DNA of 29,984 nt, taken from positions 1 to 29,984 of the IMG/VR virus record IMGVR_UViG_3300025534_000029. One strand, 5' to 3'. This document shows, in pieces, positions 20,878 through 28,917 of this stretch; positions within the stretch are counted from its first letter, which is position 1; the number at the start of each line of letters is the position of its first letter. The translations under genes were made by a program, and so were the position numbers. Source of the stretch: a virus (lineage: Duplodnaviria > Caudoviricetes). The notes under the pieces are model-generated. The model saw nothing but the letters and a program-made list of their open reading frames with translations. It was not told the DNA's origin and searched no databases.

Positions 20878-20906
20878 ATTATACAATTATATAATTATAT
20901 GGTCAA
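20878..20906 (-). promoter_or_regulatory. SigmaA promoter with palindromic operator
   Basis: TTGACC-17-TATAAT; ATACAATTATATAATTATAT at 20881-20900. Confidence 0.85.
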
Positions 20907-21112
20907 CTATTTTTTATAAAACTTTTTAGTCTTTCTAAATCTTCTTTCCAAAACAACTGTACTTTCCCTTTTCCAGTACCATACTCTTTGCAAGGGGTTA
21001 TCCGACCTTCTCTGATGTGATGCTGGAAAGCTACATTGGATAGACCAACATATCTTTCAGCTTCCCTCCTGGTCATGATTTGCTGCAAAAATTCTTCTTT
21101 AGTCATTTTCAT
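20903..21112 (-). CDS. Small MerR/excisionase-like helix-turn-helix protein
   Basis: IMTRREAERYVGLS...HIREGRITP...LFWKEDLE pattern. Confidence 0.8.
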   Translation of the reverse strand: MKMTKEEFLQQIMTRREAERYVGLSNVAFQHHIREGRITPCKEYGTGKGKVQLFWKEDLERLKSFIKNS

Positions 21113-21584
21113 CTTGCTTGTCCTCCAGAATTGGATTGAAATATTTTTCTTCTGCTTCTTTTCTAGCTTTTATAGCATCATCTTTATTATCAAAATATCC
21201 TAAAGTAATCTGTTTACCCTTAAACCCGATGTATGCCCGCCATTTTTGGCGACTCTCCATCCAACTTACGCCTTTATGACCACTTTTATTATGTTTGTGT
21301 AGTTTAGCTTTTAACGCTGTTTTTCTTGTCCCATCCAAACGATCTTGATTTATATGACGTTTAACCCCAGCATCTCTTTTACTAACTCGTTTACAACCGC
21401 AACTCTTGTAATGACCTGCCCGTAGCGACGCCCCTGTTACAAAAATTGTGTTCCCACAAGCGCACCGGCACTCCCAAAGTAACGTATTATTTTGGCCGCG
21501 TTTCTCGCTTAATTTAACGACAGATAAATCACCAAACCGTTTACCCGTTAAATCAATACGTCTTGAGTCTACACGTTTAACCAT
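21099..21584 (-). CDS. AP2-domain DNA-binding protein with Cys-rich N-terminus; no HNH domain seen
   Basis: DLTGKRFG..WECRCACG..SCGC; NKSGHKGVSW..KWRAYI..LGYF..AIKARKEAE. Confidence 0.88.
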   Translation of the reverse strand: MVKRVDSRRIDLTGKRFGDLSVVKLSEKRGQNNTLLWECRCACGNTIFVTGASLRAGHYKSCGCKRVSKRDAGVKRHINQDRLDGTRKTALKAKLHKHNKSGHKGVSWMESRQKWRAYIGFKGKQITLGYFDNKDDAIKARKEAEEKYFNPILEDKQDEND

Positions 21585-22030: not shown

Positions 22031-22066
22031 AAAAAATCCCACTATCTTTAAACGATAGAGGGATTT
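22031..22066 (-). terminator. Terminator after the PemK-like gene
   Basis: Minus strand AAATCCCTCTATC...GATAGTGGGATTTTTT. Confidence 0.75.
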
Positions 22067-22532
22067 ATACATCTTCATTCAATTTATTTATATATTCTTT
22101 TAAAACTTCATTTACTGTATGTTCAATTTGTTTTGATATATATTCTTTTAGTGTGTCTTGCATTTGCAAAATTTCAATTAATTTTAAGTGTAATGAAACT
22201 TTATCAGTAGCATTTAAATGATCTATTTTGTTATTAGTGTTTAGTTTATTTCGAGAAAATGTCATTATTTGATCAAGTTTTGCGTATGAATCATTGATTA
22301 AATTAGGATAATCTGCTTTATATAATGGAAGATGAAAAGATTTTAGATTTTTTTTATTCCCTTTTTTGTCATATAATGAAGTAATTGGGCATAGGATTAC
22401 AGTTTTATTTGGAGTCTCATTATCGTGTAGTATTAAGGCTGGATGCTCACCTTTTATAGTATATTGAGGTTGTGTCTTTTCTTTTGGAAAATAGAACCAA
22501 ACTATATCTCCTTGTTGGAACTCTCTAGACAA
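22065..22532 (-). CDS. PemK/MazF-family endoribonuclease toxin-like protein
   Basis: QGDIVW..FP, KGEHPALIL, VILCPITS, DSYAKLDQIMTF. Confidence 0.85.
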   Translation of the reverse strand: MSREFQQGDIVWFYFPKEKTQPQYTIKGEHPALILHDNETPNKTVILCPITSLYDKKGNKKNLKSFHLPLYKADYPNLINDSYAKLDQIMTFSRNKLNTNNKIDHLNATDKVSLHLKLIEILQMQDTLKEYISKQIEHTVNEVLKEYINKLNEDV

Positions 22533-22555
22533 CTATTAGTCACCTGCCAATTTCT

Positions 22556-22867
22556 TCACTCACCTTGCTCATCTTGATATTTTTCTAAAAAATCATCATC
22601 GTCATAGTCAGGTTTTTGCATTTGTTTTAACTTATGTTTTTGTCTGATTTTTGAATTTTCAATCATTTCCTGAAAACTATATCCATTTTCATCTTTGAAT
22701 CTTTGTAAAGCGATTTCTAGTGGGGAAAGTTCTTTTCTTTCTTTGGGCGTTTTGTTACGAATCAACTCCTTTACCGTTAACATATCATTTTTCTCCTTTC
22801 CATTTTGTGCATTGCCTGTTTTCTGCTTACATTCTTGATTGTTGTCCTTATTGTTGTTCTTTTTCAT
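22556..22867 (-). CDS. Charged low-complexity protein, putative antitoxin
   Basis: Directly upstream of toxin; acidic C-tail DYDDDDFLEKY; RBS GGGGTGA. Confidence 0.6.
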   Translation of the reverse strand: MKKNNNKDNNQECKQKTGNAQNGKEKNDMLTVKELIRNKTPKERKELSPLEIALQRFKDENGYSFQEMIENSKIRQKHKLKQMQKPDYDDDDFLEKYQDEQGE

Positions 22868-23666: not shown

Positions 23667-23882
23667 TCACCCTACTTTTCGTTTCTTTATTGGACCAATT
23701 GAAAGGATGTTCGATCGCTTAAACGTTCGAAAAGTTTTTCGAAAATGACAGTAAGCACGAATGTATTTATCATTAAAGTCTTTAACCGTAATGAATCTTT
23801 CTGTTATTACCCCTTGATCGTTCATGTAGATCATCCTTAAAGCAAAACCGCACTTTTTGGCATTCAGCAGCAAACCGTTCAT
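23667..23882 (-). CDS. Small stand-alone WYL/YolD-like domain protein
   Basis: MIYM...G.ITERFI.V......IRAYCHFRKTFRTFKRSNILS; RBS GAGGTG supports ATG 23882. Confidence 0.75.
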   Translation of the reverse strand: MNGLLLNAKKCGFALRMIYMNDQGVITERFITVKDFNDKYIRAYCHFRKTFRTFKRSNILSIGPIKKRKVG

Positions 23883-23901
23883 GAATTTCACCTCGAAAAA
23901 A

Positions 23902-23944
23902 GAACATTTGTTCTTATTATAACCGAATATACGTTCTGTGTTAA
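23902..23944 (-). promoter_or_regulatory. SigmaA promoter with two LexA/DinR (SOS) boxes
   Basis: GAAC-ATTT-GTTC 23902-23913; GAAT-ATAC-GTTC 23925-23936; TTAACA-17-TATAAT. Confidence 0.85.
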
Positions 23945-23973: not shown

Positions 23974-23999
23974 ATGGACAAACAATATTTTCATATCCT
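23974..23999 (+). promoter_or_regulatory. Putative mother-cell promoter: SpoIIID-type box and sigmaE/sigmaK-type -10
   Basis: ATGGACAAAC fits WWRRACARNY; CATATCCT fits CATAnnnT. Confidence 0.6.
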
Positions 24000-24022
24000 C
24001 CTATAGGGAGGATTGATATTTC

Positions 24023-24193
24023 ATGAAAATTATCGTTATTAGAGGAAAGAATATTTCTAAAAACATACAAAATTGCTATGATTATATATTGAAAATGTAC
24101 GGAGGGGGATGCAGTAATAATGATTGCAATCTATGCAAGAGTGAGTACCGAAGAACAAGCGTTAAAAGGGAGCAGCATAGAAAGTCAGATTGA
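24023..24193 (+). CDS. Unannotated 56-aa ORF overlapping integrase start, putative recombination directionality factor (Skr-like)
   Basis: RBS GGGAGG 24006-24011; MKIIVIRGKNISKNIQNCYDYILKMYGGG... Confidence 0.6.
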   Translation: MKIIVIRGKNISKNIQNCYDYILKMYGGGCSNNDCNLCKSEYRRTSVKREQHRKSD

Positions 24194-25607
24194 GGCATGC
24201 ATCAATAAAGCAGGGACAACCGATGTTCTGCGATATATAGATGATGGATATTCAGGAGAATTGTTGGAACGTCCTGGATTGAACAAGCTTCGTGAAGATG
24301 TTGAAAAAGGATTAATCGATAAAGTCATTTGTTATGATCCTGATCGATTATCAAGAAAACTCATGAATCAATTGCTTATTGATGATGAATTTCGGAAAAA
24401 AGGAGTAGAATTGGTATTTGTAAACGGAGAATACGCAAATACTCCTGAAGGACAGCTTTTCTTTTCTATGAGGGGAGCAATAGCTGAATTTGAAAAAGCA
24501 AAAATTAAAGAACGGACAATGGGAGGGAGGAGACAAAAAGCTAAAAAAGGTATCATCATTAAAAATAGTGGATTATACGGATATACATATAATAAGGAAA
24601 AAAGAACATATGAAATCAATGAAGATGAAGCAAAAATTGTACGAATGATTTTTGACTATTACACAGAACAAAGATTCCATGGAATTAATAGTCTTGCAAA
24701 ACATCTGACCAAAATCGGTGTTCCAACCAAAAATGGAGCCAAAGAATGGCATAGACAAGTCGTTAGACAAATCTTAATGAATGAATCATATACGGGTAGA
24801 TATTATCAAAACAAATGGAATACTGAAGGGGCATATGTGAGAAAGCAAGCCGGAAAAGTCGGAGGAATGCATTTGCGAGAAAAAGATGAATGGATAGAAA
24901 CGAAAATACCGGCTATTATATCAGAAGAGCAATTTGCAAGAGCGCAGGAATTGCTAAAATACGCAAGGAGAAGAACCGAAAGTTATGGTCGTCATCAATA
25001 TCTTTTGTCAGGTTTGGTCCGTTGTGGTCGATGTGGAGCGACGATGAACGGAAAAAAGACGGTCAGAAGAGGAAAAGCAAAATATGATTATGTTTGTAGA
25101 AAAAATTATGCAGGGGCAAAAAACAAAGGCTGCGGAAGACAAATGAGTGAACAAAAGCTTGATCATATTGTTTGGAATCAGGTTTTAGAATGGCTAAATG
25201 ATCCTGAAGAATTAAGCAAATATAAACCGAGCGACAATAAACAATATATATATGAAGAAATAAAACAAATAGAAACAGAGATTGAGAAAACAAGAAAAGG
25301 CCGAAAACGGCTTTTGAAGCTTGCAAGCCTTGATGAGGAACTAGAACTTGAAGAGATCAAAGAACAATTGAGAGAACTCCAAGAGAAAGAAAAAACACTA
25401 ACGGAACAGTATAGCGAATTGCAGAGGGAATTGGAAGAACAAAAGAGCAACAATAACAATAATGAAATACTTTTAAAAGAGGCTCTTGAATACTTTCTTA
25501 AAAACAAAGACGATATAACTTTTGATAAAAAGCAACATATAATAAGAAAGTTAATTAAAGAAATTGTAGTTGTGGATGCTGAAACAGTTTATATTTACAC
25601 GTACTAG
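24120..25607 (+). CDS. spoIVCA: Large serine recombinase, SpoIVCA/CisA (skin recombinase) homolog
   Basis: YARVST catalytic motif, YDPDRLSRKLMNQL, WHRQVVRQILMN, zinc ribbon LLSGLVRCGRCG...CRKNY.GAK..GC; matches my recollection of CisA along its length. Confidence 0.93.
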   Translation: MIAIYARVSTEEQALKGSSIESQIEACINKAGTTDVLRYIDDGYSGELLERPGLNKLREDVEKGLIDKVICYDPDRLSRKLMNQLLIDDEFRKKGVELVFVNGEYANTPEGQLFFSMRGAIAEFEKAKIKERTMGGRRQKAKKGIIIKNSGLYGYTYNKEKRTYEINEDEAKIVRMIFDYYTEQRFHGINSLAKHLTKIGVPTKNGAKEWHRQVVRQILMNESYTGRYYQNKWNTEGAYVRKQAGKVGGMHLREKDEWIETKIPAIISEEQFARAQELLKYARRRTESYGRHQYLLSGLVRCGRCGATMNGKKTVRRGKAKYDYVCRKNYAGAKNKGCGRQMSEQKLDHIVWNQVLEWLNDPEELSKYKPSDNKQYIYEEIKQIETEIEKTRKGRKRLLKLASLDEELELEEIKEQLRELQEKEKTLTEQYSELQRELEEQKSNNNNNEILLKEALEYFLKNKDDITFDKKQHIIRKLIKEIVVVDAETVYIYTY

Positions 25608-25630
25608 GTCGCCGTATGGGGCGACCTTTT
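25606..25630 (+). terminator. Terminator after integrase
   Basis: AGGTCGCC-N6-GGCGACCT-TTT. Confidence 0.75.
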
Positions 25631-25662
25631 GACATCAAAATTTCGTTTTTGATATCAAAAGG
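25625..25662. other. attP site (predicted target sigK)
   Basis: CCTTTTGACATCAAAA-TTTCGT-TTTTGATATCAAAAGG, 16-bp arms with one mismatch; minus strand reads AAC GAA ATT TTG ATG. Confidence 0.8.
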
Positions 25663-25705
25663 GTACGTCATGGAGTTATTTAGGAACGAATGTTTGGTTT
25701 GGCAA

Positions 25706-25730
25706 TAAAAAGAAAAGCCCAAAAGGGCTA
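25706..25730 (-). terminator. Terminator of leftward immunity operon
   Basis: Minus strand AGCCC-TTTT-GGGCT then TTTCTTTTT. Confidence 0.7.
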
Positions 25731-25731
25731 T

Positions 25732-26664
25732 TTATTTAACAATTTTAACATCTGATGGTTCAGCACTCATGCCAGGAATGGTAATATTTGCGCCAATTGT
25801 ACTTTCATAAGAAAAATTACCTGTTATGGTACCAAATACTTCTACAATATCATCTTCAACTGCATCAGTTGTACCATTAACCAATACTGCCATTGTATCA
25901 TCATAAAATCCATAACCTTTATTTGTAATATTCACTCTTAATAAAGTTGTTCCGTTTTCCTCTAACGCTTGAATCACTTGTCCTTTGATAAAATACGGTT
26001 CTCCTTTATAGTTATCAGCATTTTTCTTCAAATGATTGTATGAAATTTGTTTGGCATTTTCTTTTCCTTTGTTGATTTCCTCTTGTTTCTTCTTCTCTTC
26101 TTGTTGTTTTATGTATTCTTGCGCAGCTTTAGAGTGTTTCACACTAACAGTCACTTCATTATCGTCTTTTCCTTCTTTGGAAGCATAAAAACTATAGTCT
26201 GTTGCCAAATTAACATCTACTGAAAATGTTCCGTCATCATTTACTTTTATATCTTTCTTTTCCGTATCTTCTGGATTTCCTAGCCCAACTGTATCAAATG
26301 TCATGACAAGTTGAGTTCCAGGTTCAGTTTTTCCTGTGATGGTTGCAACTGCTTTTTCATTTGTTTCATATTCTGTTTTGTCTGTTGATAGAGAAACTTT
26401 TGGAAGCTCTTGCTTGTCTTGCTCCTCTTGTTCTGATTGATCATTATTTGTACTAGCCGTTTCGCTATCACCAGAAGATACACTAATTGAAAAAAGAACC
26501 ATACCTATACATAGACTTACCACTGGATAGAGAAACATTTTTTTCAATGATGCAATAGGTTTGTGTTTAATTTTTTTAACAAAGAATAAAATAGAAGAAA
26601 CAATAAGATAAATAATCGATACAACAATGGCGAAAAATCCCAACAATCCTAAAATAGCAAACAT
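25732..26664 (-). CDS. Membrane-anchored extracellular protein, candidate superinfection exclusion factor
   Basis: Two N-terminal TM helices, Ig-like middle, C-terminal OB-fold-like GQVIQ...EDDIVEVFG...TIP; lies in the lysogeny module. Confidence 0.75.
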   Translation of the reverse strand: MFAILGLLGFFAIVVSIIYLIVSSILFFVKKIKHKPIASLKKMFLYPVVSLCIGMVLFSISVSSGDSETASTNNDQSEQEEQDKQELPKVSLSTDKTEYETNEKAVATITGKTEPGTQLVMTFDTVGLGNPEDTEKKDIKVNDDGTFSVDVNLATDYSFYASKEGKDDNEVTVSVKHSKAAQEYIKQQEEKKKQEEINKGKENAKQISYNHLKKNADNYKGEPYFIKGQVIQALEENGTTLLRVNITNKGYGFYDDTMAVLVNGTTDAVEDDIVEVFGTITGNFSYESTIGANITIPGMSAEPSDVKIVK

Positions 26665-26749
26665 AAAGATCCTCCTTAATAACTTATATCATTTGAATAT
26701 CAATTCTAATATATATTAATATTTTCCAATTTTACTCCTAATAATAACT

Positions 26750-27163
26750 TTATATATACCTCTCCATCTCCAAAGGAATCCCATTTTCTCGCAAAATATC
26801 ATATTTGGTTTCATAATCTTCTAAATTTTCTCCGTGTAAGAGGAGATGGACAGCGAATTCATTTGCCTCACGTTCGATTTTGTCTTTTGAGAATAAAGTA
26901 TTCTTATGTAAAAAAGGTGTATTCTCATCTTTGTGAAGAATAGCGTGTCCAAGTTCATGAGCACAAACAAATTTTTTTAAATAGTCTTCTATATCGGAAT
27001 TAATAGTAATAACTTGATGACGAACATTTTTCATATAGAACCCCAATGTTTGACCAAGAGGAAAATATCTAATAATGATATTTCTGTTTTTTGCAATTTC
27101 AAAAGGATTATTTGTCCGGTGTTTTTTAATCTCTCTATCTAATGTCCGTATAATCCAATTCAA
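26750..27163 (-). CDS. immA: ImmA/IrrE-family metalloprotease (anti-repressor)
   Basis: TNNPFEIA, CAHELGHA (HExxH), EREANEFA; likely TTG start at 27163. Confidence 0.93.
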   Translation of the reverse strand: MNWIIRTLDREIKKHRTNNPFEIAKNRNIIIRYFPLGQTLGFYMKNVRHQVITINSDIEDYLKKFVCAHELGHAILHKDENTPFLHKNTLFSKDKIEREANEFAVHLLLHGENLEDYETKYDILRENGIPLEMERYI

Positions 27164-27174
27164 GAAACTCACTC

Positions 27175-27624
27175 CTAATCTTTACGGTATTTTTTGGGAG
27201 TGAATTTTTTCTTAGCGAGTTGTTTTGTAAGTCTTAAGTTACTTTCGATCGCTGCCTTAACCAATTCTTTTGTTTCCTCGTCCATTGGCTCACCGTCAAA
27301 GGCTAGAGCTGTATCTGAATCCATGCTTTCGAGTATTTTTTCAAGTTGCTTAGCAATGTCTCGTTCGTCTTTTGCCGTTAACCTAGGAAGATTATCTTTA
27401 TGGTTTGATGGGTTATTAGATCTTGGGTTATCAGATCTTCCAAGTAAATAATCTGTTGATGTTTCGAGCACATCAGCCAGTAGAGCTAACATTTCATTCG
27501 AGGGCGTGCTATACCCGTTTTCATAATTACTAATTGTTCCTTTTGTAGTATTCACTTTTTTTGCTAGTTCTTCCTGAGTATACTTTCTAAGTTTTCTCAT
27601 ATGTTTAAGCCTTTGGGATAGCAT
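27175..27624 (-). CDS. XRE-family immunity repressor (ImmR/CI-like)
   Basis: TQEELA...TISNYENG..STDYLLGR; RBS AAGGGTGA supports ATG 27624. Confidence 0.93.
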   Translation of the reverse strand: MLSQRLKHMRKLRKYTQEELAKKVNTTKGTISNYENGYSTPSNEMLALLADVLETSTDYLLGRSDNPRSNNPSNHKDNLPRLTAKDERDIAKQLEKILESMDSDTALAFDGEPMDEETKELVKAAIESNLRLTKQLAKKKFTPKKYRKD

Positions 27625-27644
27625 ATCATCACCCTTTTTTAAAT

Positions 27645-27761
27645 GTACAAGTTTATTGTACATAAATTAAATTAAATTTAAACAATAGTACAAAAAAATT
27701 GTACTTTTGTATTGACATACAAGTTTCTTGTACATATAATAAAAGTACAAGATATTCATAC
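27645..27761. promoter_or_regulatory. Genetic switch: four 17-bp operators and consensus rightward promoter
   Basis: GTACAAG-N3-(C/A)TTGTAC-like sites at 27645, 27688, 27717, 27745; TTGACA(27712)-17-TATAAT(27735). Confidence 0.9.
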
Positions 27762-27778
27762 AACAAGGTGGTGAGACA

Positions 27779-28003
27779 TTGAAAAATACCAATTTAATTA
27801 ACTCACGTAAATCCAAAGGATTAACACAAGAGCAATTGGCCCATATAGTAGGATGCAAGGGTAGACAAGCCGTTTCTAACTGGGAGAATGGCTATTCAAC
27901 TCCTCCGTTAGCAATTGCTCTAAAGGTTGCAGAAGTATTAGAAAAAGATGTTGCTTTTTTATTTGGACATAAAGTACAAGAAACTCATACAAATTCAGCC
28001 TAA
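27779..28003 (+). CDS. Cro-like XRE regulator
   Basis: GLTQEQLA...AVSNWENG; divergent from repressor; RBS AAGGTGGTG. Confidence 0.92.
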   Translation: MKNTNLINSRKSKGLTQEQLAHIVGCKGRQAVSNWENGYSTPPLAIALKVAEVLEKDVAFLFGHKVQETHTNSA

Positions 28004-28054
28004 GATAAAAAGCCGCAACTATTTTCTAACTTCATCCTTGCGGGAGGTGATCTA

Positions 28055-28183
28055 ATGAAAAAACACTCATCGATGAAAGTCATAGTCGTAAAAGGCGAAA
28101 ACTTTGAAAAAGTCGTCAAAGAAGCGCAAAACCATTTTTTTGATTTCTTGACACAATACACAAAAGAAAAGGAGGCGTCTTGA
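28055..28183 (+). CDS. Unannotated 42-aa ORF, paralog of the ORF upstream of the integrase
   Basis: RBS GGGAGGTGA; MKKHSSMKVIVVKGENFEKVVKEAQNHFFDFLTQYTKEKEAS; TGATG coupling to next gene. Confidence 0.75.
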   Translation: MKKHSSMKVIVVKGENFEKVVKEAQNHFFDFLTQYTKEKEAS

Positions 28184-28917
28184 TGAATCAGTTGCAACCA
28201 GTTCAACAAAAACTTGTTGATTTTAATGGTACTGAGATTATGGCTATTCAAACTAATGATAAAAAGATTTTTGCTGGCGTTAAATCAATTTGCCAAGGAT
28301 TGAAATTAGATCCACGTCGTCAAAAAGAAAAATTACAATCTCACTTAACGCTTTCAAAGGGAGTGGCAACCCTGACACTACCTACGAATGGTGGTATGCA
28401 AGAAACATTAGTTATTGATATTGATTTTCTTCCACTTTGGTTGGCTTCTATCAATCCGGCTTTAGTTAGTGAAGAAGTGAGAGAAAACTTACTCGACTTT
28501 CAACTTAAAGCAAAAGATGTTCTTGCTTCTGCTTTTATTAAAAAAGAAAATGTAACTCCACTTTCAAAGGATCAAGCCCTTGTTACAGTGCTGCGGACAA
28601 CAGCTGATTTAGTCGAAAAACAAGATTCAATTATCAAAGAGCAGCATGAAATTAGAAAGTTAGTTTCGCAGATTGATAACAAAGTGGAAGAACAAATTAC
28701 TCTTGATCATGGTGAACAACGCCGGATTCAAAAATGTGTTGCCACGAGAGTATATGAACTTGCTGATGATCGCGAAACAAGATCCAAGCTTTTCAGAGAG
28801 TTGTATCGAGAAATCAAAGATAGATTTGCTGTTGCAAGTTACCGGGATCTAAAACGTCGAGATTTATTTCAAGCTATCTGCTATATAGAGAACTGGATCC
28901 CGAAAAAGGTTTCATGA
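28183..28917 (+). CDS. Antirepressor-family protein (P22 Ant-like N-terminus, ORF6C-like C-terminus)
   Basis: VDFNG, LPTNGGMQE, FLPLWLASI; LYREIKDRFAVASYRDL...YIENW. Confidence 0.88.
   Translation: MNQLQPVQQKLVDFNGTEIMAIQTNDKKIFAGVKSICQGLKLDPRRQKEKLQSHLTLSKGVATLTLPTNGGMQETLVIDIDFLPLWLASINPALVSEEVRENLLDFQLKAKDVLASAFIKKENVTPLSKDQALVTVLRTTADLVEKQDSIIKEQHEIRKLVSQIDNKVEEQITLDHGEQRRIQKCVATRVYELADDRETRSKLFRELYREIKDRFAVASYRDLKRRDLFQAICYIENWIPKKVS

Follow-up and report, generated by a model that had tools for sequence, protein, structure and literature searches.

The skin rearrangement serves in textbooks as an example of DNA excised in the course of development. In Bacillus subtilis, this excision needs skr, a 64-codon open reading frame (ORF) that overlaps the integrase gene spoIVCA by 101 nucleotides (nt) in the +1 frame (PMC6957869), is under sigmaE control and has a promoter labelled PE+SpoIIID in Fig. 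S3 of the same paper. Recombination directionality factors (RDFs) bind the junction between DBD2 and the coiled-coil of their integrase (PMC12286644). As skr and the integrase gene (int) have been reported under mother-cell control only, the question arises how an active skin phage could integrate after infection and excise in the lytic cycle. The present work deals with the attP-joined record of a siphovirus, one viral contig 29,984 bases long (IMG/VR record IMGVR_UViG_3300025534_000029, positions 1 to 29,984; hereafter the window), and with two of its micro-ORFs, ORF1 and ORF2, that resemble Skr.

An initial annotation of the window, made from its letters alone, had proposed that both micro-ORFs were paralogous RDFs of one serine integrase, ORF1 for excision during sporulation and ORF2 for lytic induction. 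It added that skr lies just upstream of the integrase gene and that the prophage SPbeta uses the single RDF SprB under two controls, and both statements agree with the text of PMC6957869 and PMC4191935, respectively.

Relationship of the two micro-ORFs to Skr

Both micro-ORFs were found where they had been annotated, each preceded by a GGAGG-type ribosome-binding site (RBS) that can be read from the sequence. The genes needed to follow their arrangement are these:

24023..24193, + strand: ORF1, predicted Skr orthologue, 56 amino acids (aa), conserved core at about residues 1-30
24120..25607, + strand: SpoIVCA-type large serine integrase (Pfam domains Resolvase, Recombinase and Zn ribbon)
27779..28003, + strand: cro-like gene (Pfam HTH_3)
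28055..28183, + strand: ORF2, predicted Skr paralogue in the early lytic operon, 42 aa, conserved core from the ATG at 28073 (36 aa)
28180..28917, + strand: antirepressor gene (Pfam P22_AR_N and ORF6C)

ORF1 starts 97 nt upstream of the integrase start (24120) and, as first annotated, runs over it, the overlap being of 74 nt in the +1 frame. A Skr homologue was present in this same frame at 32 of 33 related integrase loci, the exception (L026) being a broken copy, and the copies of the B. subtilis group (L005, L006, L008 and L024) have 64 aa, start 94 nt upstream and overlap the integrase gene by 101 nt, matching PMC6957869. When a Skr-core profile made without the window rows was run against 31,625 six-frame segments from 115 loci, ORF1 scored 39.7 bits (E 2.6e-10), and its alignment with Skr includes G8 and C18-Y19. 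Only about the first 30 residues are sequence of ORF1's own, the remainder lying over the integrase gene; the 40-aa forms of Skr in L031 and L032 end before that gene. Judged by sequence and place, ORF1 is very probably Skr, the RDF of the skin-type integrase, which supports the initial annotation's reading of it.

ORF2 begins 51 nt after cro, again in accordance with the first description, and its stop codon overlaps the start of the antirepressor gene. The alignment of ORF1 with ORF2 gave a BLOSUM62 score of 47 (p 5e-5 in 20,000 shuffles, a value unchanged without the Met). It is ungapped from the second ATG of ORF2 (28073) and holds 7 identities in 26 positions (M, K, I, V, G, N and K). These residues had been noticed at the outset as shared by both peptides, together with QN and L..Y; the latter two lie out of register in the ungapped alignment and were rejected as matches.

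When the families were compared, the Skr and ORF2 alignments, each containing one window row, matched by hhalign at 97.6% and E 2.7e-12 over 28 ungapped columns; the A8 alignment holds a member bearing the Cys-Tyr (CY) motif. The paralogy proposed from the two single sequences was therefore upheld at the level of the families. The Skr profile ranked four post-cro ORFs, from phage PK1, L037, the window and L047, just below the true skr genes, with 11.5-18.9 bits, values that are weak alone. In the opposite direction, the ORF2-family profile collected 111 representatives (at 50% identity) among 1.84 billion proteins, and retrieved from them a true Skr with its integrase-overlap tail (P0116, E 4.6e-4). 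Whole-genome searches located the post-cro ORF at the far end of the skin prophages of Peribacillus acanthi and Bacillus spizizenii.

The two families are also linked within single elements. In G436 and G269 the ORF after cro is a bridging form with the CY motif, whose helix nearly matches that of its own Skr. For 12 pairs, the mean score of a paralogue was 44 against the Skr of its own element versus 35 against non-cognate ones (permutation p 4e-5); the cognate Skr ranked first for 6 of the 12 paralogues, and for 8 of them once the RBS-driven tail was left out. The Lys/Glu-rich ends of both families were rejected as evidence of homology because they overlie the RBS of the following gene.

On these sequence comparisons, ORF2 is almost certainly homologous to Skr. 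The traits of a skr orthologue were not found in it, as it sits after cro, has no sporulation promoter motif and lacks CY. By sequence and position, ORF2 is thus a paralogue of Skr and not skr itself.

AlphaFold2 monomers of ORF1 and ORF2 each showed an extended N-terminus followed by a single helix, which in the model of the 36-aa form of ORF2 spans residues 11-35, with a predicted local distance difference test score (pLDDT) of 92. Scans of Pfam, PHROG and NCBIfam gave no meaningful family for either peptide, and a single-sequence search with ORF2 matched only two near-identical proteins. A sequence search of the PDB with the ORF2 profile returned nothing below E 0.26, and the best match in a fold search with the 36-aa model had a Z of 4.2, to generic helices, which says nothing about function. 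The ORF2 family is unannotated: its member P0011 is named hypothetical protein of B. subtilis in its source, and B. subtilis 168 has a 46-codon gene, yqdA, at this place in its SknR-repressed operon. Bacillus phage PK1 (L114, OM112209.1) has an integrase of the skin type, and its deposited record annotates neither skr nor cro nor the paralogue.

Distribution of the paralogue

A skin-type integrase was found in 21 of 401 Bacillales genomes. Run on the same genomes, the ORF2-family profile gave 12 hits, made up of six post-cro ORFs, one skr, three members elsewhere and two that were dropped as noise, and all six post-cro ORFs were on the same contig and strand as a skin-type integrase. Family members were present in 6 of the 21 genomes with the integrase versus 3 of the 380 others (Fisher p 7e-7, the genomes not being independent).

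A cI/cro switch was counted in 10 of the 21 skin elements and a Skr-like early ORF in all 10, eight of these ORFs with profile support and two weak (G447 and G154, E about 0.5). The other 11 elements comprised six seen fully and five seen only partly; among the six seen whole between the sigK halves and without a cI/cro hit, none had the paralogue. In the genus of G003, the post-cro ORF was present in 6 of 49 genomes, all six with skr, alongside differing cI and cro genes, so that the ORF2-type ORF persists while the adjoining cI and cro are exchanged. Both ORFs are also present in phage PK1 and, by profile, in three of five IMG/VR skin proviruses, the other two having divergent candidates detected by eye. 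The skins of the B. subtilis group carry the paralogue.

Phage loci with other integrases gave a different picture. Among 95 loci anchored on the cI or the antirepressor of the window, ORF2 was found in none of the 54 with a tyrosine integrase and in none of the 10 with another serine integrase, and in L039/L115, where the antirepressor is 100% identical to that of the window and the integrase is another one, an ORF2-type ORF was not found. With the exceptions of G054, G114 and G473, dealt with below, ORF2 accompanies its cognate integrase and forms part of an early lytic unit, as is expected of the RDF of a large serine integrase.

The pair formed by Skr and its paralogue is not particular to this phage and recurs in skin prophages across Bacillales. 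For this reason, the idea in the initial annotation that this phage had itself duplicated its RDF was abandoned, the duplication being an old one common to skin-type elements. Conservation of the similarity in related phages, on which that annotation had staked its proposal, was observed in PK1, in the IMG/VR proviruses and in the 6 of 21 skin-integrase genomes.

Skin-type elements come in at least three layouts. In G377, G136, G333, G445 and G307 (L242, L246, L250, L251 and L254) skr-int is immediately preceded by the 5' part of sigK, which has the same direction; the elements of G377, G136, G333 and G307, which were seen whole, have non-phage cargo or are minimal. Separately, one region of G003 (G003:C3:385000-462000) was found to contain several surplus copies of skr, some of them broken, together with 3' fragments of sigK. 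The same was seen in G010, G015 and G028 and suggests stacked or repeated skin insertions.

Predicted promoters and RNA control

The expression signals and the repressor genes of the window relevant to both ORFs are the following:

23974..23999, + strand: predicted mother-cell sigmaE/SpoIIID promoter of skr-int, with a SpoIIID-like box (23974-23983) and a CATA-type -10 (23992-23999), called from the motif alone
23995..24013, + strand: hairpin over the skr RBS, 8-bp stem, z -3.5 against shuffles of the 5' part
24054..24082, + strand: candidate sigmaA-type int promoter inside skr, extended -10 at 24074-24082, -35 with 3/6 matches
26750..27172, - strand: ImmA-type metallopeptidase gene (Pfam Peptidase_M78)
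27175..27663, - strand: cI/ImmR-type repressor gene (Pfam HTH_3, PHROG 8)
27712..27740, + strand: sigmaA promoter before cro, ORF2 and the antirepressor gene (early lytic operon), 12/12 consensus match

The initial annotation had set sporulation-type control of ORF1 against early lytic control of ORF2, and the predicted signals agree with it. The motif [AG][GT]ACA..CATA was present upstream of 22 of 26 dereplicated skr copies and of 0 of 12 paralogues. No terminator-like site was found on the + strand between the early lytic promoter and ORF2, and this, together with the 12/12 match of that promoter, leads to the prediction that ORF2 would appear only on removal of cI.

The leader of skr has a further property. 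In 12 of 26 skr leaders, versus 0 of 12 paralogue leaders, the RBS pairs (p<=0.05) with the region of the -10 hexamer and the sequence before it. Because of the position of this pairing partner, the hairpin is predicted to form only in transcripts beginning upstream of the sporulation promoter, and the RBS would be exposed only in those that start at it.

A third signal may lie within skr. The codon for Asp12 is GAC in 17 of 18 clusters of skr, versus 31% in integrase genes (p 3e-8), and creates a yTGACA -35-like box. The -10-like box that follows it at 17 nt is TG-extended and covers the CY codons. We hypothesize that a promoter for int is placed here, inside skr; the promoter-scan listing did not contain it. 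As the -10-like box overlies the CY codons, such a promoter would explain why the paralogues need no CY.

A two-RDF model and its alternatives

Taking gene order, control signals and homology together, it is likely that Skr acts in mother-cell excision and ORF2 as the lytic-cycle RDF of the same integrase. Upon infection, Int would be made without Skr, its source being the weak promoter within skr, transcripts from further upstream whose skr RBS is hidden by the hairpin, or both, and the incoming phage would integrate into sigK. In the mother cell, sigmaE and SpoIIID would start the transcript within the hairpin, so that both Skr and Int would be made and sigK rejoined, while cI would hold the lytic genes off. 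Upon induction, ImmA would remove cI, the cro operon would supply the paralogue, and the same Int would excise the prophage for replication. Elements that have lost the lytic switch would retain skr alone.

The wider proposition is that each integrase has two paralogous and co-evolving RDFs across the skin prophages of Bacillales, those of the B. subtilis group included, and that skr is in addition a control element, with the int promoter inside and an RBS locked unless the transcript starts at the sporulation promoter; we regard this as evenly poised. A second skin RDF was not found in the literature searched, where subscription journals are thinly covered. If the model is true, a conserved second RDF in the cro operon accounts for the lytic half of the excision problem, and a function can be assigned to an unannotated family of at least 111 small proteins. 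It would also provide a reason why one phage keeps two RDFs, a situation that Shin et al. found surprising for Int30 (PMC12286644), and would offer natural integrase/RDF pairs with two interchangeable switches. As the B. subtilis group carries the paralogue, the model is testable in a laboratory strain.

A number of observations speak against this division of labour. In G054, G114 and G473, clear members of the family occur in elements that lack a skin-type integrase and are not placed after cro; one of them adjoins a gene resembling a tyrosine recombinase. ORF2-type ORFs are also carried by L037, L047 and L116/G497, with no integrase within those records, and L037 and G497 hold in addition the micro-ORF that accompanies a different integrase in L039. 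G498, a record rated complete, has an ORF2-type ORF and no serine integrase; its close relative G499 starts with the 5' part of sigK. As no more than 4 kb separates int from cro once the genome is circular, linkage or shared descent may explain part of the co-occurrence and of the cognate similarity, and for 4 of the 12 paralogues the cognate Skr ranked only fourth to seventh. In ORF2, Ala-Gln takes the place of the CY motif, which hardly varies among Skr sequences. With respect to the putative int promoter inside skr, its -35 is poor in this phage (3/6), and codon choice at Tyr19 and at residue 20, two of the three codon tests, was not significant. Finally, the B. subtilis skin is reported to be excised in sporulation only, and not after mitomycin C (PMC6957869, Fig. 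3 legend), although skins of the B. subtilis group carry the paralogue; the B. subtilis skin is a defective element.

The family members of G054, G114 and G473, and the size of a family whose 111 representatives have a mostly unknown context, would also suit an ORF2 with a different function, as an early peptide of phages in general, for example host interference like YqaH of the same operon, with Skr recruited from this family and the co-occurrence due to module linkage. The skin early operon does encode host-targeting small proteins (bioRxiv 2020.11.18.388090), and serine integrases use scavenged phage proteins as cofactors according to the title of PMC11795197. However, ORF2 was not found in the 64 close phage loci with other integrases, it was retained through the exchanges of cI and cro, and its resemblance is to the cognate Skr, up to the near-identical helix in G436, so we consider a general peptide of this kind unlikely. 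It is even less probable that ORF2 binds Int chiefly to block re-integration (attP x attB) in lytic replication, or to tune Skr, instead of triggering excision. Such a role would fit the absence of CY and the behaviour of the B. subtilis 168 skin after mitomycin C, but in known RDFs a single binding site serves both tasks (PMC12286644), the overlapping promoter-like box and not the protein may be what conserves CY, and the bridging paralogues retain CY.

Skr could also serve both exits, as SprB does in SPbeta, by means of DNA-damage-induced read-through, ORF2 then being a vestige, a reading to which we give very little credence. It would draw on two LexA-box-like sites (23901 and 23924) located 80-120 nt upstream of skr. 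The promoter that overlaps these sites nevertheless points away from skr, genes on the opposite strand lie upstream of skr, and longer transcripts are predicted to keep the skr RBS covered. Moreover, ORF2 is intact and conserved across Bacillales, which argues against a vestige despite the SprB precedent of one RDF under two controls (PMC4191935).

Phage record, attachment site and neighbouring genes

The gene order of the window is terminase, portal, capsid, tail and lysis genes, followed by accessory genes, the serine integrase, the ImmA-type protease, the cI-type repressor, cro and the antirepressor. As the lysis and immunity modules are contiguous, the record is attP-joined. Its integrase shares 57-61% identity with those of Bacillus and Peribacillus, most of which have the 5' part of sigK alongside, and is followed by the attachment site:

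25625..25662, + strand: attP, an inverted repeat whose core (25642-25647) is aligned with the Asn-Glu codons of sigK at the junctions of relatives

When compared with 18 junctions of related elements, the left arm and core of attP aligned to 13 right junctions and the right arm to 5 left junctions, at the sigK Asn-Glu codons. The window therefore has both traits of a skin element, the att core in these codons and an integrase of the SpoIVCA type. A near-perfect attP repeat is present in L028 too; L028 and L037 do not overlap, have record names sharing a dataset number and may be one phage.

Three more groups of genes, all on the - strand, lie before skr. At 20903-21584, among the accessory genes, there are an excisionase-like helix-turn-helix gene (phrog_4691, E 2e-5) and an HNH/AP2 endonuclease gene, both probably unrelated to the serine integrase. 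At 22065-22867, Pfam detected a PemK/MazF-like gene preceded by a 103-aa gene; the two may form a toxin-antitoxin pair. At 23667-23944, a 74-aa gene (phrog_6785) is divergent from skr and lies behind an 11/12 sigmaA promoter overlapped by the two LexA-box-like sites.

Comparison with known systems

Among elements inserted in sigK, C. difficile skinCd (CD1231/CD1234) has a constitutive, sigmaA-driven integrase and an RDF driven by sigmaE/SpoIIID (PMC5025042), controls like those predicted for the window. By published description, it differs in its sigK site, according to PMC6957869, and in the single RDF that the accessible part of PMC5025042 reports. C. perfringens PhiS63 is an inducible phage that integrates into sigK, as is predicted for the phage of the window, at a site different from that of the B. 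subtilis skin, and no RDF is named in the main text (PMC3442830).

The B. subtilis skin with SpoIVCA and Skr shares several features with the window. The window integrase is about 58% identical to the skin integrases of the B. subtilis group and would use the same sigK site, and skr lies directly upstream of int in both, with a +1 overlap and a promoter motif of the sigmaE/SpoIIID type. In contrast to the B. subtilis skin, the window unit comes with genes for head, tail and lysis in a phage record joined at attP. Skr is the only RDF named for that skin in the available sections of PMC6957869, where no Skr paralogue in the early operon is mentioned.

The proposed possession of two RDFs has a parallel in the Int30 phage, where one serine integrase has two similar small RDFs, both shown to be active (PMC12286644). 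Int30 and its RDFs are of a different family, and their duplication is called surprising in the accessible text of that paper, which gives no regulatory reason for it. The post-cro ORF of a phage contig (L040:3380-3607, - strand) resembles, by eye, the two validated Int30 RDFs of the supplement to PMC12286644, which suggests that in phages of Bacillus an RDF is commonly encoded in the slot following cro. A different micro-ORF occupies this slot in L039:4390-4521 (-), L037:9389-9514 (-) and L313:39071-39196 (record coordinates). L039 is a sibling phage with another serine integrase, for which its post-cro micro-ORF is a candidate RDF; in L037 and G497 the different micro-ORF adjoins the ORF2-type ORF, and P0091 resembles a fusion of both peptides.

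The model for the window can also be compared with SPbeta with SprA/SprB, a prophage that sits in a mother-cell gene and exits both in sporulation and after DNA damage (PMC4191935). In SPbeta the integrase is made constitutively, and it is the RDF that determines when excision takes place (PMC4191935), a feature that we count as shared with the model for skin-type phages. What separates the two is how the RDF is doubly controlled: SPbeta has one RDF gene with two promoters (PMC4191935), whereas skin-type phages apparently have two RDF genes with one control each.

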